A stretch of DNA of 64,000 nucleotides, taken from positions 1 to 64,000 of the IMG/VR virus record IMGVR_UViG_3300027908_000005; one strand, written 5' to 3'. The position numbers and the translations under genes are program-made. Below the pieces are notes generated by a model, which searched no databases, was not told where the DNA came from, and saw only the letters and a program-made list of their open reading frames with translations. The DNA is from a virus. This document shows, in pieces, positions 9,739-52,358 of this stretch (the stretch's first letter is position 1; the number at the start of each line of letters is the position of its first letter).

Positions 9739-9985
9739 ACGGACTAAATGAGTCCAGCCGGGCGAATGTATCTGTGTGTAGCGAGATAGCAGATAACCGC
9801 TACGCTCCCGGCCCGGCTGGACGCGTTGTGTGTAAAGCCTATCCCTGTACGCATGGGGAGCGTGGAGGGATCTGGCAGCCTGCAACATCCCCTTGAGATG
9901 CCCTCGCACGACCGAGGCGGGAGAGTTTTAGCCAGGCTCGGCGGAGACCAGGCACGGAGGCACTGGGCGCCATCTCGTGATTATA

Positions 9986-10468: not shown

Positions 10469-10732
10469 AGGTATGTAAGGACGCATTGAACAAACCGGAC
10501 CCGGCCCTAGCGAAGCCGACCACATACAGAGATCCCCGGAACGGGCGCGAGCCCTCCACCCCACCGAGACCGCAACGGTCAGAGCCCTGGGGAACACCCG
10601 GCGGATAAGTTTGGCAGTAACCGCCCCCCTCCAGGTAGGGAACCGCGCCGGGTTGCGCCCGGTTAGCATCAAATGAGCCGTTCGAGTCGGCTCGGGGGGG
10701 CATTCGACAAAACACAACGAGGAGAGAGAGAC

Positions 10733-16319: not shown

Positions 16320-18722
16320 TTATCCGGGAAACTCTTTGTCATCATCCTTCTCGCTGCGTAGTCGGACGCCGGTCCAGACTCGCATCAGTACCCCGCCCTT
16401 GCGTTTCCTGTCCTGCTCACAGTGGCGTTTATTGAGACGTAGACCGAGGGCTGTGGCACTCTCGATCCTGAATCCGTTCTGTTCGCACCACGTCTTGTAA
16501 CCGCGATACAGGTCAGCCGCCGATTCCATCTCTTCGGCATCGAAGATACATTCTTCCGCCAGATAACGCCCGATGTGATCTTCCGATTGCCGATACCTCT
16601 CCAACATCTTCCGACTCTCGGAGGGTATTAGAAATCTTTGTCGTTGCTGAAGTCGTCGTAATCCAACTAATGCCCAATTAAAGATGCCGGAAATTTCCAA
16701 ATGCAATTTGTCATCCAAAGTAGAATCGCGAGAATCCTCCGGGATGTCATAACGCCATTCGATCGGGCAGATCCTGCGAAAATAGGCGTTACTCGGATCG
16801 TTGGTCGCCGGGAGGGCGTTACACGTGACGATGATTCTGCAGAAGGGGATAAATTGGAACGGTTTTTCCGTTGGGCGTCGGGCGTCGATGGGATCTTCAC
16901 CCCCAGTCAACGCCTTGAATGTACCTCCGTTTTTCTGCATCGCTTGCCGTGAGGGTTCATTAACGAGACCGACGAGTTTTCCGTAGAGGTTGGCGCGATA
17001 GTATTCGTTGTGAAGCTGGTCGATCATGATCGGAGTGGAACATTCTTCACTGACCAAATGACTAAGCACCCTGGTCGCGGTGCCCTTGCCATTCGCCCCC
17101 TCTCCGACCCAAAACATCGAAAGTTGCTGCCGATTGTCCGGAATGAGACAATAGCCGAACCACTCCTGTAATAGTTCCATCCATTCGACGCACGGTTTAC
17201 CGTCCCGTTGAATCAACCATTCGGAGAGACACCTTAACCATGTCGGACAGGTGGCGTTTACGTCGAACTCGAAAGAGGATTGACGTGTCAGCATGTTGAT
17301 AGGAGAATGAGGCAGGAGTTCTCCGGATGTCAAGTCATAGACACCATTGCGAAGGGGTATCCAATCTTTACGCGGATTGAACCGATTCAATGTGATCGGT
17401 CTCAATTCGGGTCCGACCATATTTTTGATGTTAGATGTGAACTGAGCGGTAATCGGTCGCAACTTCGCCCCCCCCGATTCCTTCAATCGTGCCAGCCAGT
17501 GATGAACTTCTGACCGTACAACTTCATGCGATGAGTAAAACCACTTGCCGGAATCATACGCCCACCATTGATCCCCTTCGACGTAGACGTATTGGCCTCG
17601 AAATTCAGCGACCCAGGCCCGCGCCAGCCCCAGATCGGAAACCTCGATCTCATCCGGCGGTTCCTCCCCCTCTGCCGACCCCTCATTGATCGCGTCCACG
17701 ATTCCCGGACTGACTTCCTCCTCTGTCGGTGGCACCGTGGTCTTACGCGTCCTCTTCACCGTCGGAACCTTCGGCGGCTCTCCATACCCCTGCCGTCCCA
17801 ACTCCGCCGCCGCCGCCGCAAAATTGCCGTTATGTTCCAGGAGGGCGTAAACGCTGAATGGTCTGTATCCCCGCTCCGGTTCGAACGGAAGGGCGTTTGT
17901 CGAGAAGATGTATAGATACCCGTGCCCCCCGTGATTGAAGGTGGCGGAGATGCCGTCGCCGCTCTTGCCGGGGCGAAGCAGGGAGACGGTCGCGCCGCGC
18001 CGATAACAGAGTTTCCAGCCGTGGGACTGCAGGAGTCTAAGGATGTCACCGCGCGCGTTATAGTCATCACCGGGGCGATTACCTTCATGGGGCGTGACTT
18101 CGCGCCGGATGTCCTCCTCGTATATCTTCTCCGGCGGTAACTCATGGAAGAGTCGCGCCATCGCCAGTAGAGCATCCAACTGATCGGCAGAGATCGTCGG
18201 GATCTCTTGAAACTTTCCGTTCATCAGACGATAGCCAGCCGATGGAGGGGCCCCAACGTATCCACCCTCACCACGCGTCTCGATAATCGCCTTCGATCCC
18301 TCCGCCATCCCGCGCGCCAGCACCTGATTATGATAGTCGCCAGACGCATAGCGCAGGTATAAATGCTCTGCGCCGCGAGGAGTCTTGACACGCACCAATG
18401 AACGCACGAGGTCACCGAGTCCGTGATCCTCGGCTGTCACCAGGAAGAGATCGTAGAGTCCGACCCGATCGAAGTCGATGATGTAGAGATTGCCGCTGAT
18501 CGATCCGCAGACGATACCGAGCCAGTCATTCCCGGCGAACCATTCTGCCCGTTCCTCGATCGTCGCGATTCGGTCTCGATAGGAATTCCATTCGACCAAA
18601 TCGGGACGTTTCGTTCCGTCCGGTTTCAGCGGAATCGTAGAGATACCGAGGGTGGCGAGGATGCAGGATGCCTGATAGGTTCGTGTGTTCGGAATTGAGG
18701 CGGTCATGACAGGAAACCTCAC
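16320..18722 (-). CDS. bifunctional primase-polymerase / SF3 (P4/D5-type) helicase
   Basis: 800 aa. N-terminal prim-pol pattern (PLKPDGTKRP ... GNLYIIDFD). Walker A GEGANGKGT in the C-terminal P4-family NTPase region. The start is GTG 18722 or ATG 18707. Confidence 0.9.
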   Translation of the reverse strand: MRFPVMTASIPNTRTYQASCILATLGISTIPLKPDGTKRPDLVEWNSYRDRIATIEERAEWFAGNDWLGIVCGSISGNLYIIDFDRVGLYDLFLVTAEDHGLGDLVRSLVRVKTPRGAEHLYLRYASGDYHNQVLARGMAEGSKAIIETRGEGGYVGAPPSAGYRLMNGKFQEIPTISADQLDALLAMARLFHELPPEKIYEEDIRREVTPHEGNRPGDDYNARGDILRLLQSHGWKLCYRRGATVSLLRPGKSGDGISATFNHGGHGYLYIFSTNALPFEPERGYRPFSVYALLEHNGNFAAAAAELGRQGYGEPPKVPTVKRTRKTTVPPTEEEVSPGIVDAINEGSAEGEEPPDEIEVSDLGLARAWVAEFRGQYVYVEGDQWWAYDSGKWFYSSHEVVRSEVHHWLARLKESGGAKLRPITAQFTSNIKNMVGPELRPITLNRFNPRKDWIPLRNGVYDLTSGELLPHSPINMLTRQSSFEFDVNATCPTWLRCLSEWLIQRDGKPCVEWMELLQEWFGYCLIPDNRQQLSMFWVGEGANGKGTATRVLSHLVSEECSTPIMIDQLHNEYYRANLYGKLVGLVNEPSRQAMQKNGGTFKALTGGEDPIDARRPTEKPFQFIPFCRIIVTCNALPATNDPSNAYFRRICPIEWRYDIPEDSRDSTLDDKLHLEISGIFNWALVGLRRLQQRQRFLIPSESRKMLERYRQSEDHIGRYLAEECIFDAEEMESAADLYRGYKTWCEQNGFRIESATALGLRLNKRHCEQDRKRKGGVLMRVWTGVRLRSEKDDDKEFPG

Positions 18723-22522: not shown

Positions 22523-22551
22523 ATTATAACATAATCCGCTTGACAAGTCAA
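22523..22551 (-). promoter_or_regulatory. leftward early promoter TTGACT-N17-TATAAT
   Basis: Minus-strand TTGACT (22551-22546) and TATAAT (22528-22523). Its -35 abuts the rightward -35. Confidence 0.6.
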
Positions 22552-22569
22552 TAGTTGAAAGTGTATTAT
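22540..22569 (+). promoter_or_regulatory. rightward early promoter TTGACA-N18-TATTAT
   Basis: TTGACA at 22540-22545 and TATTAT at 22564-22569, then AGGAGG and ATG 22590. Confidence 0.55.
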
Positions 22570-22851: not shown

Positions 22852-22880
22852 TTGACAACTACACTTTCAGATGATACAAT
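22852..22880 (+). promoter_or_regulatory. promoter TTGACA-N17-TACAAT
   Basis: Hexamers at 22852-22857 and 22875-22880, immediately after the XRE gene stop. Confidence 0.6.
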
Positions 22881-32911: not shown

Positions 32912-33162
32912 AAGGCGGTTTTCTCCTCTACCGATGCCGCGTCTGCGGGAAACGCTACGACGGCGTTCACTGCCTCGATGTCTTACTGACGGTATCGGCA
33001 CTTATGACCGGCATGGAACTCCCGAAAGTCCGCAATCTCGTGTGTCATAGGGATCGTCCTGGCAATATCATCCATGAAGGCTATGCCGACTATGATGACC
33101 AGCGCGCAGGGCTTACGATTACCGACGCGGGCAAAGCCTACTTGGATAGTCTGCAACCCTAA
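32908..33162 (+). CDS. zinc-ribbon protein
   Basis: 84 aa from in-frame ATG 32908. CRVCGKRYDGVHC. Confidence 0.5.
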   Translation: MKGGFLLYRCRVCGKRYDGVHCLDVLLTVSALMTGMELPKVRNLVCHRDRPGNIIHEGYADYDDQRAGLTITDAGKAYLDSLQP

Positions 33163-33752
33163 GAGAACCTTGCTTTATAGCCCGGCTTAAACCAGGCAAG
33201 CTCGGTCGGCCCGTCATGCGCCTTGTCCCACACGAACCAGGCGTAGGCAGTTGTTCCACTGCCGGCCCGAGTGGCACCGCTCGGGTAAAAGGTGATCCGC
33301 TCGCTAAACACCCAAACGCGGCTCGGAGGGCTAACGCTAAAGATCGTGTTAGCCCGATGGGCACTCTCTAAAAACGCCAATCGCAATAGAAGGGCGATCT
33401 TCCGGTCAGTTTGCTGCAAGGCAGTTCGCAGAAATCCTTCCGCACTGTTGAACGGCGGGTTGGTTATGATATTCGTCGCCCGCCGTGTCGTCTGCAAGAA
33501 ATCGTGTCCGATCTCTCCGAACCCCCGGTCGTATAGGTCAGAACTCTCTACAGGGTTGCCAGTAGTCTTGAGGACTCTGGTCATGGAGCCATCCCCGCAG
33601 GCGCATTCCCAGATTGTTCCAGCGAACTTCTCATTGTCGATCAGTGCGTGAGTTGCCCAAACAGGTGTGGGATAGAAGTCGGGGCCGTCGAGGTCTGCAA
33701 AGCGTTTGATGGTGGGCTTGTAGGCACCGGTGAGGGAGTACGTCGGATCCAT
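33159..33752 (-). CDS. N6-adenine DNA methyltransferase (gamma-type motif order)
   Basis: 197 aa. FYPTP, then ECACGDG (motif I), then TNPPF (motif IV). Lower GC than its surroundings. Has its own promoter. Confidence 0.7.
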   Translation of the reverse strand: MDPTYSLTGAYKPTIKRFADLDGPDFYPTPVWATHALIDNEKFAGTIWECACGDGSMTRVLKTTGNPVESSDLYDRGFGEIGHDFLQTTRRATNIITNPPFNSAEGFLRTALQQTDRKIALLLRLAFLESAHRANTIFSVSPPSRVWVFSERITFYPSGATRAGSGTTAYAWFVWDKAHDGPTELAWFKPGYKARFS

Positions 33753-33793: not shown

Positions 33794-33822
33794 AGTATAA
33801 TTCATCTGTGAGTCCGTGTCAA
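33794..33822 (-). promoter_or_regulatory. promoter TTGACA-N17-TATACT
   Basis: Minus-strand TTGACA (33822-33817) embedded in an AGTCCG/CGGACT hairpin. TATACT at 33799-33794. Confidence 0.55.
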
Positions 33823-33841
33823 GTATGCGGACTGATTCCAG

Positions 33842-34872
33842 GTGACTCACGATTCGTGACTCATGATTTGATCGGTGCCATGTGCTGCAAATGGCCGGTT
33901 GTCAATGCCTCGTAGGTCAACCTCTTGCCTACGATCTGTCCCGCTACCTGCTGGAACCTTTGCCCGTCCTTCTCCTTGCGGGTATTGTACCGGAAATCCT
34001 GTTCCGCCAGATACCGCTCTTGATGCTGCGGCGACATGATGACGTAGGTTCCGTGATAGCACCGATCCAGAAGGTTCCAGTAACCTTCAATCCCGTTGGT
34101 GTGAGCCTTCGTGCCGTCTTCGTGCTCAATCACGTATTGCCCGTTCTTGTGGTCAACTGTCCGATGCTCGTAATGTTCAGACAGTCCGTTGTATCCCTTC
34201 GCGGAATCGGTGAACAGGTCGGCGTCTTCTTCGACGTTTTCCAGAACCTTCGCTTGAAGCGTCTCCTTTGTGTTGTCGGGAATGACCATCGTTCGGACTT
34301 CGCCGTCACGCTCGCGGAAACCCATGACTGCCGTCTTCGGGAAGCCCTTCTCTCTCATCTCCTTGCGCTTGCCGCTATGCATGTTTTTGGCTTTGCCGCC
34401 GATGTAGGTTTCATCGCATTCGACTTCGCCTTCCAGCGGCTTCACGCTACCCGACTCCATGATGTGGCGGATACGATGAAGCAGAAACCAAGCGGACTTT
34501 TGAGTAATACCGAGATCCCGCGCAACCTCACAGGAGGAAATGCCGTTCTTCGCGTTAGCGACCAGCCACATAGCCGCGAACCAGGTTTCGAGGGGAAGAC
34601 GGGAGGACTCAAAAATCGTACCGACGCGAACCGAGAAGCGTTTGCCGCAAGGTCGGCAGTTCCAAACCTTCTGCGTTCGGATGAACGAGAGTTCTCTGTT
34701 CCCACAGTAGGGGCATTCGACGCCGTTCGGCCAATGCATGTTCTTGGCATACTCGAAGCATACGTCAGGGTTGCTGAAGTATTTAATAGCCTCGACTAGG
34801 GTTTGGGGAGATTGTGTATTCATGTCCGCAGTGACCGCCTTGCCTAAAATTAGGTTGCTGATACTTAGTCAC
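33842..34872 (-). mobile_element. IS1595-family insertion sequence (ends approximate)
   Basis: Transposase gene plus imperfect terminal repeats: GTGACTCA(C/T)GAT (twice, at 33842-33869) versus the reverse complement of AGTCAC at 34867-34872. No target duplication found. Confidence 0.45.
33861..34823 (-). CDS. IS1595-family (ISXO2-like) DDE transposase
   Basis: 320 aa. N-terminal zinc ribbon CPYCG ... CRPCG, HTH (GISSCEVARDLGITQKSAWFLLHRIR), ECDETYIGGK, and a C-terminal DDE region with TNGIEGYW. Confidence 0.85.
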   Translation of the reverse strand: MNTQSPQTLVEAIKYFSNPDVCFEYAKNMHWPNGVECPYCGNRELSFIRTQKVWNCRPCGKRFSVRVGTIFESSRLPLETWFAAMWLVANAKNGISSCEVARDLGITQKSAWFLLHRIRHIMESGSVKPLEGEVECDETYIGGKAKNMHSGKRKEMREKGFPKTAVMGFRERDGEVRTMVIPDNTKETLQAKVLENVEEDADLFTDSAKGYNGLSEHYEHRTVDHKNGQYVIEHEDGTKAHTNGIEGYWNLLDRCYHGTYVIMSPQHQERYLAEQDFRYNTRKEKDGQRFQQVAGQIVGKRLTYEALTTGHLQHMAPIKS

Positions 34873-34901
34873 TAACCGGACGGTCATAAATGCGGAAAAT
34901 A

Positions 34902-34924
34902 TATCCGCCTAAAATAGGCGGATA
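34902..34924 (-). terminator. intrinsic terminator for minus-strand transcripts
   Basis: 10-bp perfect stem TATCCGCCTA/TAGGCGGATA with a 3-nt loop. On the minus strand it is followed by TATTTT. Confidence 0.5.
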
Positions 34925-34968
34925 CTGAGAATATTTTTAGGCGATTCACGGCGATTAATTCGCCAAAC

Positions 34969-34997
34969 TTGACACGCGCAACCAAATAGCCTATAAT
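34969..34997 (+). promoter_or_regulatory. perfect consensus promoter TTGACA-N17-TATAAT
   Basis: Read directly: TTGACA at 34969-34974, 17-nt spacer, TATAAT at 34992-34997. Confidence 0.65.
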
Positions 34998-35004
34998 AAT
35001 AGAG

Positions 35005-35035
35005 AGGGTCGAACAGTTCGTACCTGTTCGACCCT
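35005..35035 (+). promoter_or_regulatory. 12-bp leader hairpin preceding the tRNA-like gene
   Basis: AGGGTCGAACAG ttcgtac CTGTTCGACCCT, starting about at the predicted +1. Confidence 0.5.
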
Positions 35036-35046
35036 GTGCCGAGTGT

Positions 35047-35123
35047 GCCGCCGTACCTCAGAGGATAGAGGACCGGTCTCGTAACCCAGGAAGTCCTCGG
35101 TTCAAATCCGAGCGGCGGCACCA
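35047..35123 (+). tRNA. tRNA-Thr(CGT)-like gene with defective anticodon stem
   Basis: 77 nt. Acceptor GCCGCCG/CGGCGGC, D arm CCTC-AGAGGATA-GAGG, loop CTCGTAA, T arm CTCGG-TTCAAAT-CCGAG, A plus CCA encoded. The anticodon stem (CCGGT vs CCCAG(G)) forms only 3 of 5 pairs and has 1 extra nt. Confidence 0.6.
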
Positions 35124-35136
35124 AACCTCATCTATA

Positions 35137-35165
35137 ATGATAGCACATTAGACCGAATGTGTCAA
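35137..35165 (-). promoter_or_regulatory. antisense promoter TTGACA-N17-TATCAT facing the tRNA-like gene
   Basis: Minus-strand TTGACA (35165-35160) and TATCAT (35142-35137). The predicted transcript covers the tRNA-like gene antisense and ends at the 34902-34924 terminator. Confidence 0.55.
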
Positions 35166-35855
35166 CGGCTACGGATCATGACGGACGATCAACTAAATGA
35201 CGTGGTATCACACCAGATCGCTTTCTTCGAAAAGGAGCGATCTGACTCCCTGTCAAAAGCCCAGGAGTATCACAACAAAGCAACCGCGCTAGAGACGAGA
35301 GCGACCGAACTTGACGCTGTCATACGTAACCTGAAGGATTACCAGAATAAAATCAATGGAGTGACAACGAAGGCAGCATCTCCGCACACTCCCAACAAAA
35401 AGCCAAAGGTTGACATACGCTCACTGGCTCGTTCTTATATACAAACACATCACGAATTCACGTCAGATGAACTCTTCGGTTATATCCGCGCGTCTTTGCC
35501 TGATGCTCATGAAGGAACTATACGAGCAGAAATCAGCCGGTCAAAAAGACTGGGACGTGTAGTATCTATATCTAGGAACAAATATCGCTCACTAGAATGC
35601 CAGACACAAGAGCAGGCAACTACTGAAGAACCTGTGCCGGGTAGTAGCGAATCCCCGGAGTCTGACATGAGTTTTCTCTTACGGAGAAGAATACTCCCGA
35701 AAGAGCCAGAAGCAGTAAACAATGATCCTGAGCCAGCAAAGGAAGAAGGGCAAAAGGAAGAGGGACAACCGGAAAGTTTTCCTTTGTCTGATCGCTTCCC
35801 TTCCAATGACGATCTTGAAGATCTGGATCAGACAGATCCGTTTGCTGACGAGTAA
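35157..35855 (+). CDS. acidic protein: coiled coil + winged-helix-like core + SSB-tip-like tail
   Basis: 232 aa (or from ATG 35178). About 45-53% GC by hand count. FTSDELFGYIRASLPDAHEGTIRAEISRSKRLGRVVSI is wHTH-like. The C-terminus reads DDLEDLDQTDPFADE. Confidence 0.55.
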   Translation: MCQRLRIMTDDQLNDVVSHQIAFFEKERSDSLSKAQEYHNKATALETRATELDAVIRNLKDYQNKINGVTTKAASPHTPNKKPKVDIRSLARSYIQTHHEFTSDELFGYIRASLPDAHEGTIRAEISRSKRLGRVVSISRNKYRSLECQTQEQATTEEPVPGSSESPESDMSFLLRRRILPKEPEAVNNDPEPAKEEGQKEEGQPESFPLSDRFPSNDDLEDLDQTDPFADE

Positions 35856-36045
35856 AGACTTAACCCCGACGATTGCAGCGTCGGGGTTAGGGTACAGCGG
35901 TGCATACGAATGCTTCCGAGTCTCATCGTAAGTATACCCTACTTGCGAGTCGGAAACAAGTCCCTGCCCGCTGGAGGGGGTATATAAGGTGATACTCCGT
36001 GCCTTATTAGCCCTGGGGTTAGTCCGTACCCGACCAAAACGGACT

Positions 36046-36098
36046 GCTCAACCCGGCAGGATTTCCTGCCGGGTTGAGCCTCTACTTTTCCGTTTTTT
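36046..36098 (+). terminator. rho-independent terminator
   Basis: 15-bp stem GCTCAACCCGGCAGG/CCTGCCGGGTTGAGC with loop ATTT, followed by CTCTACTTTTCCGTTTTTT. Confidence 0.65.
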
Positions 36099-36139
36099 CG
36101 TGATATACTGAGAGTAGACTAGACGGAGGAAACCAGACT

Positions 36140-36328
36140 ATGAGTGACCAACCGTTAGAGCAGCCCGACTTACGTACGCCCTTCGAGAAGTTCGAAGACT
36201 TAGCCCGACTCGCCTTCAATACGCCGAAGTCGGTCGTAGATCAGCGGATGGCTGAGGAGAAGGAGAAGCGACGGCAGGCACGGGAGACTAAGAAGCAAAC
36301 TCCGGCGAAAGGAAACCATCATGGTTGA
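36140..36328 (+). CDS. hypothetical protein
   Basis: 62 aa. SD GGAGGAAA. Low GC. K/E-rich C-terminus. Confidence 0.45.
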   Translation: MSDQPLEQPDLRTPFEKFEDLARLAFNTPKSVVDQRMAEEKEKRRQARETKKQTPAKGNHHG

Positions 36329-36503
36329 AACTCAAAAAGTCGAGGAAAAGCCTGTTTCATGTAAACATGAAAATGTTAACAAGGAAATATGGCCTACGGA
36401 CAACGAAGGCGGAATTTGGTCAACTGGCGATTTTGTCTGCCGTGACTGCGGTCAATCATTGACGCCAGAAGAACTTGATAGAATCAGGCCAAAGCAGAAA
36501 TAA
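36321..36503 (+). CDS. zinc-ribbon protein
   Basis: 60 aa. CKHEN ... CRDCG. 8-nt overlap with the previous ORF. Confidence 0.45.
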   Translation: MVETQKVEEKPVSCKHENVNKEIWPTDNEGGIWSTGDFVCRDCGQSLTPEELDRIRPKQK

Positions 36504-36620
36504 TCCACAAAAAGAAACGTATCCTCTCAATAATCCGGGGTAACTTCGCCAAAATGGCTCGCCGATGACCTATGGCCGGGGCGAAAATCGGGCTTCCGCC
36601 CCGGATTATTGGAAAGATAC

Positions 36621-36661
36621 AAAGAAACCTGTGCAATAGAAGATTGCACAGGTTTCTTTTT
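36621..36661 (+). terminator. rho-independent (partly bidirectional) terminator
   Basis: 17-bp stem AAAGAAACCTGTGCAAT/ATTGCACAGGTTTCTTT with loop AGAAG and a T-run. Sits between the convergent plus and minus blocks. Confidence 0.65.
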
Positions 36662-36685
36662 GCTTGTTTGGCCGCCCCATGTAGG

Positions 36686-36997
36686 CTATCTATATAAATA
36701 CCATAATGTCTGCCATCCACTCACTACATTCTGTCCTGCCGCGTAGACATGAAACTGGAATCTGATCGGCTCCGGCTTGAATGCCGGTTCGGGGATCTCC
36801 ACGCCATATTGCAACATGGTTTCCAGATAGTCCCTACGCGCCTCGTCAAGATTTTGCAAAGCCTCTTCGACGGTGAAACCCATCGCCATGCAGCCGGTGA
36901 GTTCGTCGTTATAGGCCATGAAGCAGGGTTCCCCTCCGGCCTCATCCGTCTCTACGTGAGTTCGCCACGGCTGGTTTACATACTCGTCAAGTGTCAT
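36686..36997 (-). CDS. HicB-like (UPF0150) antitoxin-fold protein, no HicA partner seen
   Basis: 103 aa from in-frame ATG 36997. GGEPCFMAYNDELTGCMAMGFTVEEALQNLDEARRDYLETMLQYGVEIPEP matches the HicB N-domain pattern. Confidence 0.55.
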   Translation of the reverse strand: MTLDEYVNQPWRTHVETDEAGGEPCFMAYNDELTGCMAMGFTVEEALQNLDEARRDYLETMLQYGVEIPEPAFKPEPIRFQFHVYAAGQNVVSGWQTLWYLYR

Positions 36998-37062
36998 TTC
37001 GGCGTGTCCCTCTGCGCTAACTATAACCGTTGTATCACTCCTAACGCTGACCGCCACGAGTA

Positions 37063-51593: not shown

Positions 51594-52358
51594 ATGTTCA
51601 GTGTACCCGTAACCAGACCGTGCCGCAAGTGTAAGCAATCGCTTCCCCTAACATCCTTCTCGAAGGATCGCACGCGAAAAGATGGTTTAGGCGCAATCTG
51701 CAAGACTTGTATGCGCGAATACCATCAATCTACCGGACAATCTCGCAAGGTAGCATTGCAAGTAGAAAAGGTCTGTATCTACTGCAAAAAAACCTTCATA
51801 GCCTCTGGGAAAGCCGTTAAATACTGCTCTCACAGTTGCTGTAACAAAGCCCGTTCCACCGACTTAGCATCTCGCTTCTGGCCGAAGGTTCAGAAGTCCG
51901 ACGATCCTGATGCCTGTTGGCTCTGGACCGGTGCCCAAAGTACAAACCGATATGGCGGCTACGGTTGCATCGGACTCGGCACTATCCCCAATGTAATCGA
52001 ACGCGCTCACCGCGTCTCGTGGACTCTTCATCACGGTAAAATTCCTGACGATTTGCAGGTTCTTCACAAGTGCGATACGCCCCTATGCGTGAATCCGGAT
52101 CATCTCTTCCTCGGAACCAACGCCGACAACGTAGCCGACAAGGTTTCCAAGAACCGACAATCAAAGGATACGACACCGCACGGCGAAGACTGTCCCTGGA
52201 CGAAACTCACGCTTGAGCAAGTTCGGCAGATTCGCGCCGAATATGTCCCTTACTCAAAGTACGCGAATGCGCGAGTTTTGGGTGAACGCTACGGCGTCGA
52301 ACATTCTCAAATTCTTCGCATCGTCCACGGTATACGATGGAAAGATGACTTGAAGTAA
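51594..52358 (+). CDS. HNH homing endonuclease
   Basis: 254 aa. N-terminal CxxC zinc fingers. RVSWTLHHGKIPDDLQVLHKCDTPLCVNPDHLFLGTNADN is a classic HNH_3 pattern. Opposite strand to the virion operon. Confidence 0.8.
   Translation: MFSVPVTRPCRKCKQSLPLTSFSKDRTRKDGLGAICKTCMREYHQSTGQSRKVALQVEKVCIYCKKTFIASGKAVKYCSHSCCNKARSTDLASRFWPKVQKSDDPDACWLWTGAQSTNRYGGYGCIGLGTIPNVIERAHRVSWTLHHGKIPDDLQVLHKCDTPLCVNPDHLFLGTNADNVADKVSKNRQSKDTTPHGEDCPWTKLTLEQVRQIRAEYVPYSKYANARVLGERYGVEHSQILRIVHGIRWKDDLK

Follow-up and report, generated by a model that had tools for sequence, protein, structure and literature searches.

Phages are now known to counter bacterial immune nucleases that cleave transfer RNAs (tRNAs) by carrying tRNAs of their own, and the tRNAs for threonine rank among those that such enzymes prefer. 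PARIS AriB recognises the motif U36-A-A-U39 and cleaves between 40 and 41, with tRNA-Thr(CGU) as a minor target; the tRNA-Lys of phage T5 escapes it through the substitutions U39A and A41C (PMC12409363). The P2 OLD nuclease cuts CNG motifs on both strands of the anticodon stem, and phage tRNA-Thr molecules resist it by a shortened stem together with a change of motif, the anticodon arm alone determining resistance; such rescue tRNAs withstand cleavage themselves and replace the degraded tRNA (PMC12445682). Phage tRNAs complementing a disrupted host tRNA have also been described (PMC10865867). Here, a tRNA-Thr(CGU) gene with an inserted base in its anticodon stem and a promoter facing it from downstream is described in a 64,000-nucleotide stretch of viral DNA, positions 1 to 64,000 of the IMG/VR record IMGVR_UViG_3300027908_000005; this whole stretch is referred to as the window.

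Two further kinds of arrangement are relevant to this locus. Genes for tRNAs can be co-transcribed with protein genes, as in the thrU-tyrU-glyT-thrT-tufB operon of E. coli, and face-to-face promoter modules with a cis-antisense RNA are known from IS10 (pIN/pOUT), coliphage 186 (pR/pL) and pCF10 (prgQ/prgX). The locus is best explained as a true phage gene for tRNA-Thr(CGU) that is expressed and has a weakened, non-canonical anticodon stem, for which nuclease resistance is the leading rationale; a probability of roughly 0.5, loosely set, was given to this reading. Escape from nucleases is already documented for other tRNAs, and the anatomy of the locus in the window is clear and unusual.

Results

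The tRNA-Thr(CGU) gene and its anticodon stem

The gene, 77 nt long with the CCA end encoded, was called on the plus strand at 35047-35123 by both ARAGORN and Rfam. Using Infernal, it scored 52.2 bits against RF00005 (gathering score 29, E = 2.4e-08, model positions 1-71 covered), comparable with the 49.7 bits of the tRNA-Met of the same phage. The acceptor (7/7), D (4/4) and T (5/5) stems are fully paired in both the Infernal alignment and the ARAGORN drawing, and the canonical arms, encoded CCA and Thr CGT anticodon of an earlier reading, made from the sequence alone, were confirmed. In the D stem the usual G10-C25 is replaced by C10-G25, a swap that preserves pairing. The bases for tertiary contacts are all there (U8, A14, G15-C48, G18, G19, U54-A58, U55, C56, G53-C61, U33, and A37), the T loop is UUCAAAU, and the 7-nt anticodon loop, CUCGUAA, is the standard one for tRNA-Thr(CGU). 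The identity set of E. coli threonyl-tRNA synthetase (ThrRS) comprises G1-C72, C2-G71, G35, and U36. This set is complete, together with discriminator A73 (GCCGCCG...CGU...CGGCGGC-A-CCA), and the one canonical feature that the gene lacks is an uninterrupted 5-bp anticodon stem closing the 7-nt loop.

All of the defects of the gene sit in the 3' strand of the anticodon stem, where CCCAGG faces CCGGU, and they lie within this one 6-nt strand, not scattered. The Infernal alignment gives C27-G43, C28-G42, a bulged A placed between positions 41 and 42, G29-C41, G30-C40 and a U31·C39 mismatch, i.e., four Watson-Crick pairs. ARAGORN assigned the extra base to the variable loop and drew, without a gap, three of the five pairs. 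The claim that the stem forms three of five pairs in either register therefore holds for the ungapped registers and fails once the A is allowed to bulge. With a C at position 39, the pair 31-39 is open and the U36-A-A-U39 motif is lost. The nearest-neighbour free energy of the stem-loop is about +0.2 kcal/mol in the wild type, -3.6 with the A deleted and -5.4 when fully repaired, and 37 other tRNA-Thr(CGU) stem-loops average -3.9 kcal/mol. Two conformers of the arm are nearly isoenergetic, one with the bulged A and a 9-nt loop (+0.2 kcal/mol) and the other with a 2-nt bulge and an 8-nt loop (+0.6 kcal/mol).

The stem was compared with those of 70 other viral tRNA-Thr(CGU) genes from IMG/VR, confirmed by ARAGORN, and of 35 cellular ones, among the matches listed. 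Five pairs were found in 51 of the 70 viral stems and one mismatch in 19 (27%), which falls at 31-39 in eight cases and at 27-43 in six, whereas all 35 cellular stems, among the matches listed, have five pairs and none a mismatch (Fisher p = 2.6e-4). None of the 70 viral genes has an inserted base in this stem, which makes the window gene unique among 71 and bears out the view that its arm is unusual even for a phage tRNA. By this comparison of sequences, it is an extreme case of a tendency of viral tRNA-Thr(CGU) toward stem mismatches. The altered positions, 39 and 41/42, coincide with the published AriB and OLD sites, and the changes are absent from the 35 cellular genes, among the matches listed.

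The nearest sequences, among the matches listed, were archaeal tRNA-Thr genes with CCGGC/GCCGG stems (80% identical), and relative to these the phage arm resembles a standard one into which a single A has been inserted and in which 31-39 is unpaired. The cellular tRNA-Thr(CGU) genes from the genome scan came mostly from Actinomycetota and archaea; among the matches listed, all have normal stems and U73, and none is more than 80% identical. No match to the exact anticodon arm was found in IMG/VR. Many of the IMG/VR matches (L137-L253) are not tRNAs; they are Streptomyces-type 3' halves of tRNA-Thr(CGT) that start at the anticodon loop (CTCGTAATGCGTAGGTCTCGGGTTC), typical of attachment (att) sites.

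Three further assemblies, each from a different sample (ENA ERZ27255970, Logan ERR1700722, and JGI12712J15308), have exactly the same bases throughout the tRNA-Thr region, which rules out a sequencing or assembly error as the source of the extra base. ACG is the commonest Thr codon of the phage, accounting for 41% of all Thr codons and for 45-55% of those in the large virion genes. The reverse complement of the gene was also considered as a "mirror" tRNA-Arg(ACG) and rejected, since no minus-strand tRNA was called by ARAGORN or Rfam; the sole minus-strand Rfam match was Plastid-ycf2, below its threshold (27.4 against 65.7 bits).

Convergent promoters and hairpins

The sense promoter, the leader hairpin, the tRNA, the antisense promoter and the second hairpin of the sequence-only reading were all recovered in their places by the promoter scan, ARAGORN, Rfam and the search for inverted repeats. 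The sense promoter (34969-34997, plus strand) is a TTGACA-N17-TATAAT with 12 of 12 consensus positions, and its start is predicted at ~35004 from the usual spacing of ~7 nt. The antisense promoter (35165-35137, minus strand) is a TTGACA-N17-TATCAT with 11 of 12 positions and an extended -10 TG; its start is predicted at ~35129-35131, 6-8 nt past the 3' end of tRNA-Thr. When the 64-kb window was scanned for at least 11/12 matches to TTGACA-N16-18-TATAAT, 10 near-consensus promoters were detected, against 0.13 expected in shuffled controls (shuffle maximum 1). Nine of the 10 lie just upstream of a gene on the same strand, the exception being the antisense promoter at 35165-35137. Two only are perfect, one ahead of tRNA-Thr and one ahead of tRNA-Met (TTGACA-N18-TATAAT, 10104-10075, minus strand), the latter lying only ~7 nt upstream of the tRNA 5' end. 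The perfect consensus promoter is thus present but not special to tRNA-Thr.

The predicted sense start falls at the foot of a 12-bp hairpin, 100% complementary and with a 7-nt loop (35005-35016 / 35024-35035), that was found by the inverted-repeat search and by folding. On the plus strand the pre-tRNA leader begins with this hairpin, which is followed by an 11-nt single-stranded linker (GUGCCGAGUGU, 35036-35046, plus strand) leading up to the predicted site of RNase P cleavage. Read on the minus strand, the 12-bp stem is followed by CUCUAUUAUU, a terminator-like structure at which the antisense RNA would first stop. At the other end, an AU-rich 3' trailer (AACCUCAUCUAUA..., 35124-35136, plus strand) may serve for the entry of RNase E.

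A second hairpin resembling an intrinsic terminator, with a stem of 10-11 bp and a 3-nt loop, lies on the minus strand at 34902-34911 / 34915-34924 (element 34890-34925); its arms are 100% complementary (inverted repeat I15), it was also obtained in the minus-strand fold, and its minus-strand tail is ATATTTTCC / AUAUUUUCC. The antisense transcript had been expected to end at this hairpin (34924-34896), which indeed exists, but it is only the second stop for leftward transcripts, as the leader hairpin is met first. The predicted antisense products are ~130 nt long, or ~235 nt on read-through past the first hairpin. From start to start, sense and antisense transcripts would overlap by ~127 nt, and the antisense RNA would be exactly complementary to tRNA and leader. 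At the sequence level, the locus has face-to-face promoters, overlapping predicted transcripts and defined transcript ends, as in a convergent-promoter module.

A sense/antisense switch for the downstream gene had also been proposed. Because the antisense RNA would start at ~35130, upstream of the start codon at 35178, it would not pair with the ribosome-binding region; the overlap takes in only the tRNA and the leader, so that RNA-RNA pairing falls away and transcriptional interference is what is left of this proposal. Two operator-like inverted repeats, CACATT-N6-AATGTG in the spacer of the antisense promoter and GGCGATTAATTCGCC upstream of the sense promoter, do not recur in the window above chance. 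Searches of the literature returned no convergent promoter across a tRNA and no phage tRNA with a bulged anticodon stem, which is weak evidence.

The motif CTATAAT occurs within a few bases 3' of both tRNA genes, at 9975-9985 (GGCAC then TATAATCACG) and at 35132-35138 (ACCAAACCTCATCTATAATGATAG). It may act as a 3' processing signal common to the two genes or as an element of the -10 type; no matching -35 box was found for the motif downstream of either tRNA. The tRNA-Met(CAT) gene itself (10061-9986, minus strand) has C54 for U54 (T loop CUCAAAU), U1-A72 and a discriminator C, and its CCA is not encoded. ARAGORN also called a tRNA-Ala(tgc) at 10624-10701 on the plus strand, whose D stem has 3 bp and whose variable region is long, where Rfam was blank even at E <= 1; this call is probably a false positive. 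Elsewhere in the window, two near-consensus promoters stand back to back at 22523-22569 with abutting -35 boxes (TTGACT/TGTCAA), and a third is located at 22852-22880, in what looks like a divergent regulatory region.

Genes on either side of the tRNA

Downstream of the tRNA, a gene for a 225-amino-acid protein with a weak match to DUF7669 occupies 35178-35855 on the plus strand and is probably co-transcribed with tRNA-Thr. A strong terminator at 36046-36079, a 15-bp hairpin followed by CUCUACUUUUCCGUUUUUU, would close this plus-strand unit. The single-sequence AlphaFold2 model of the protein shows a long N-terminal helix, a small helical domain resembling a winged helix, and a disordered acidic tail; the predicted local distance difference test (pLDDT) is above 89 for residues 1-60 and below 50 in the tail. 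The protein was aligned with 23 remote homologues (P0123-P0145), with which it makes up a small family of uncharacterised proteins. The members of this family have an N-terminal coiled-coil helix, a helical domain with IRAELS...G.V....YRS and an acidic, DPF-rich tail, and many of them end with a C-terminal EPGxxFGR motif that the window copy does not have. A link between the tRNA and this protein was considered and rejected on limited data, as the homologue loci L254 and L255 have no tRNA. In L254, the one long homologous locus, the gene has its own promoter, TTGACAcgc-N18-TATACT, directly upstream. Neither a profile scan of IMG/VR for the family nor a word-index search, which returned the protein itself only, found a relative.

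On the other side, a gene for an IS1595-family transposase of 320 amino acids lies on the minus strand at 33861-34823 (Pfam DDE_Tnp_IS1595, 1.5e-37; Zn_ribbon_IS1595, 6.2e-13). Its closest cellular homologues, 70% identical, are from metagenome-assembled genomes of Chthonomonadaceae. Five homologous transposase loci (42-75% identity) were inspected for a link between transposase and tRNA, which was rejected, as none has an adjacent tRNA. Alignment of the upstream regions of L004, L006, L007, L008 and L009, whose proteins are 70-75% identical, revealed a conserved 5' untranslated region (UTR) of ~70 nt (34824-34895, minus strand), with TTTCCG...CGGT...AGTGACTAA in common with the window. The conserved sequence of the insertion sequence (IS) appears to end at ~34895, abutting the 34924-34896 hairpin, and L007, L008 and L009 have a TTGACG-like box (GACTTGACG) at the position of this hairpin. 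Because the conserved transposase 5' UTR ends beside it, the hairpin may belong to the transposase and insulate it, rather than serving the tRNA. The "dedicated terminator" of the earlier reading is thus real as a terminator-like hairpin, but its dedication to the tRNA is in doubt.

The transposase gene is bracketed by a 34-nt inverted repeat, 71% complementary (33815-33848 / 34943-34976), whose arms carry the outward -35 boxes (TTGACA) of the tRNA promoter and of the promoter of a gene resembling N6-adenine methyltransferases (gene, 33159-33752; promoter TTGACA-N17-TATACT, 33794-33822, minus strand). These two promoters have ACTTGACACG in common. The repeat could represent IS ends that make hybrid promoters, or a split back-to-back promoter region like that at 22523-22569. 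No 8-bp direct repeats were found flanking it, and in L001, L004, L007 and L009 no inverted repeat flanks the transposase gene, as every pair detected had one arm or both within the gene. A 2874-bp contig of the same phage, L136 (JGI12712J15308_10008120), ends inside the transposase gene, as expected if the IS is repeated in that sample.

The phage and its relatives

The window is a phage-like genome of ~60% guanine-cytosine (GC) content. Its open reading frames (ORFs) include a primase/helicase (16320-18722), C5- and N6-type DNA methyltransferases, an SLT-domain protein, an SU10-adaptor-like protein, a GDSL esterase tail-like protein and an HNH endonuclease. The SU10 adaptor, SLT and primase genes give it the look of a lytic podovirus, and the phage is novel and apparently lytic. 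No integrase domain was found among the ORFs scanned in the window, small ORFs not having been searched exhaustively, and the gene calls of L002 within ±6 kb had no recombinase match in Pfam.

No nucleotide match to GenBank phages was obtained by blastn of the window. Searches of IMG/VR with the downstream protein, the transposase and the 2134-amino-acid virion protein found no related phage, the word-index search with the virion protein returning only itself. A scan of metagenomes in which the D and anticodon arms were left free returned only the same phage.

The GC content is 46-52% across ~34600-37000, which covers the tRNA cassette and the adjoining transposase, against 60-65% in the flanks. 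A second low-GC island, at 51594-52358, holds an HNH homing-endonuclease gene. The base composition suggests that both islands are recently acquired mobile DNA, and the low GC of ~34600-37000 fits an acquired cassette. A small ORF at 36686-36949 on the minus strand has a weak match to HicB-like antitoxins (E = 4e-05), below the Pfam cut-off.

Discussion

Taken as an expressed gene, the locus would work as follows. The host sigma-70 RNA polymerase would start at ~35004 at the perfect consensus promoter, and RNase P would remove the 12-bp hairpin and the 11-nt linker at G1 (35047). The AU-rich trailer would be cut and trimmed back to the encoded CCA by RNase E and exonucleases, and the tRNA, with its identity set, should be charged by the host ThrRS and decode ACG. 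The same transcript probably runs on into the 225-amino-acid gene and would end at the 36046-36079 terminator. The RNA from the convergent promoter (~130 or ~235 nt) would limit or time the expression of the cassette, by polymerase collision or duplex formation, and any antisense transcription that gets past the two terminators would supply the transposase. The antisense promoter probably serves either to tune the cassette or to supply the neighbouring transposase.

A functional phage tRNA that decodes ACG is probable, because of the Rfam score, the intact stems and tertiary bases, the encoded CCA, the confinement of the defects, the promoter, the demand for ACG and the identical assemblies. 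Nuclease escape as the rationale for the abnormal stem is a more tentative proposal, argued by analogy with the published cases and less likely than not. Replacement of the host tRNA-Thr by a nuclease-resistant copy is nonetheless the leading rationale, because the bulged A and U31·C39 lie in the 3' strand that is cut by Toprim anticodon-stem nucleases. If that reading is true, base insertion in the stem would be an escape route outside those described, which are substitutions and the loss of one pair. Its fullest version, a tRNA-Thr(CGU) made nuclease-proof by an inserted 3'-strand base and an unpaired 31-39, and dosed or timed by a dedicated "anti-tRNA" RNA from the convergent promoter that ends at the leader hairpin of the tRNA, is rather doubtful.

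Several points weigh against an expressed, working tRNA-Thr with a selected stem. The whole cloverleaf (-27.6 kcal/mol) is 4.2 kcal/mol worse than the minimum-energy alternative fold (-31.8 kcal/mol), which breaks the T and anticodon arms, and the anticodon arm in isolation is predicted not to be stable. A bulge within the stem may also impair function on the ribosome. The cellular comparison set is biased to GCCGCC acceptor stems, mostly from Actinomycetota and archaea. Among the matches listed, the genome scan identified no host with whose tRNA or nucleases the phage tRNA could be compared, and no diverged homologue was found in the collections searched, so that neither the bulge nor the antisense promoter has support from covariation or conservation. 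Finally, it could be the downstream gene, and not the tRNA, for which the strong promoter is maintained.

The main rival, also rather doubtful, sees tRNA-Thr as a relic that is decaying or does not decode and is kept only as a structured 5' leader, or as a handle for processing, of the downstream mRNA, whose 5' end the RNase P and RNase E cuts would define, with the promoter kept for the protein gene. The marginal anticodon arm (+0.2 kcal/mol), the cloverleaf not being the minimum-energy fold, and an inserted base found only here among 71 viral tRNA-Thr(CGU) genes all favor it, as does the L254 homologue, where a near-consensus promoter stands directly upstream of the protein gene and there is no tRNA. 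A relic is harder to reconcile with the perfect pairing of the other stems, the intact tertiary bases, the encoded CCA and defects restricted to one strand of one stem, or with an Rfam score that matches that of tRNA-Met and a phage in which ACG is the commonest Thr codon. A further rival, ranking slightly above the relic though still unlikely, concerns the antisense promoter, which would be an attenuated IS1595 transposase promoter or part of the IS architecture, the overlap with the tRNA being incidental and the two hairpins holding the transposase low; for this promoter, attenuated expression of the transposase and dedicated tRNA control are about equally likely. On the minus strand the transposase gene comes next, 307 nt downstream, with no good promoter recognised between, the 34924-34896 hairpin abuts its conserved 5' UTR, and all nine other near-consensus promoters precede a gene on their own strand. 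Terminators that insulate IS ends are moreover a known feature of such elements. Yet two terminator-like hairpins separate this promoter from the gene, it lies outside the conserved IS sequence, and the homologous loci have their TTGACG-like box at the hairpin position without a comparable promoter module upstream.

The other explanations are weaker. A tRNA-shaped decoy, not used in translation and titrating an anticodon nuclease of the host, an enzyme that modifies tRNAs or some other defence protein that binds them, would account for the strong promoter, the intact L-shape core and the altered anticodon arm, and the phage literature places tRNAs centrally in defence and counter-defence; it is nevertheless improbable, as a decoy has no need of a complete ThrRS identity set and an encoded CCA, and the published cases act by replacing the cleaved tRNA (PMC12445682). 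The two nearly isoenergetic conformers of the arm would permit an expanded anticodon loop of 8 or 9 nt, with Cs 39-41 slipping on G29-G30, and thereby +1 frameshifting, or the decoding of quadruplets, at ACG-N. Derivatives of tRNAs with enlarged loops are known to act as frameshift suppressors. Here, however, the 7-nt CUCGUAA loop is standard and no frameshifted gene in need of such a tRNA was noticed, although no systematic search was made, and this explanation is highly improbable. Equally remote is a hybrid tRNA assembled from two parental halves by integration into a tRNA-Thr gene, an option already raised by the sequence-only reading, or the complementing tRNA of a "tRNA-dependent lysogeny." The tRNA-Thr(CGT) gene is a common att site, many of the IMG/VR matches are 3' halves that start at the anticodon loop, and complementing phage tRNAs have been described (PMC10865867). 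On the other side, the acceptor stem pairs 7/7 although its strands would stem from different parents, the gene has its own promoter, sits amid phage genes and encodes CCA, no integrase was detected among the ORFs tested, and the identified genes look like those of a lytic podovirus.

The locus would matter in different ways under these readings. If the tRNA is functional, a working tRNA tolerates a bulged base in its anticodon stem, which would widen the known range of escape solutions and suggest that an uncultured lineage from soil, possibly Armatimonadota, has anticodon-stem nucleases. If both strands are transcribed, it would be a compact natural example of antisense control over a complete tRNA. 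If it is a relic, the locus is a tRNA pseudogene serving as the leader of a gene cassette beside a transposase.

Comparison with known systems

Read as an expressed tRNA-Thr(CGU) gene, the window tRNA resembles the "rescue" tRNAs of T5 and phage 21, but it is not classed as one of them. Like the T5 tRNA-Lys, it is a phage tRNA altered in the 3' strand of the anticodon stem (39-41), beside the AriB cut at 40/41. The T5 tRNA is altered by substitutions in a strand of normal length, whereas the window tRNA has an inserted bulge and a 31·39 mismatch; furthermore, its anticodon is CGU, that of a minor AriB target. With the coliphage tRNA-Thr(UGU) variants (tRNA-Thr6 and the tRNA-Thr of phage 21) it shares a stem shortened by one lost pair and altered near the cut sites. 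In those variants the shortening is at 27-43 (U43A) and is accompanied by a G30C/C40G swap, in contrast to the lost pair 31-39 and the bulge of the window tRNA (PMC12445682). It also differs from the P2-OLD-resistant tRNAs in its anticodon and in that CNG-type triplets (CCG, CGG, and CAG) are still present in its stem.

As a transcription unit, the locus is like thrU-tyrU-glyT-thrT-tufB in having one promoter with the tRNA first and a downstream mRNA that would be released by RNase P and RNase E, and unlike it in having an internal convergent promoter and a leader with a hairpin at its 5' terminus. As in the IS10, 186 and pCF10 modules, two strong promoters converge over ~130 bp, with fully complementary predicted transcripts and the potential for transcriptional interference. 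In those modules the overlap covers the 5' region of an mRNA or a regulatory gene, whereas in the window it covers a complete tRNA and its leader.

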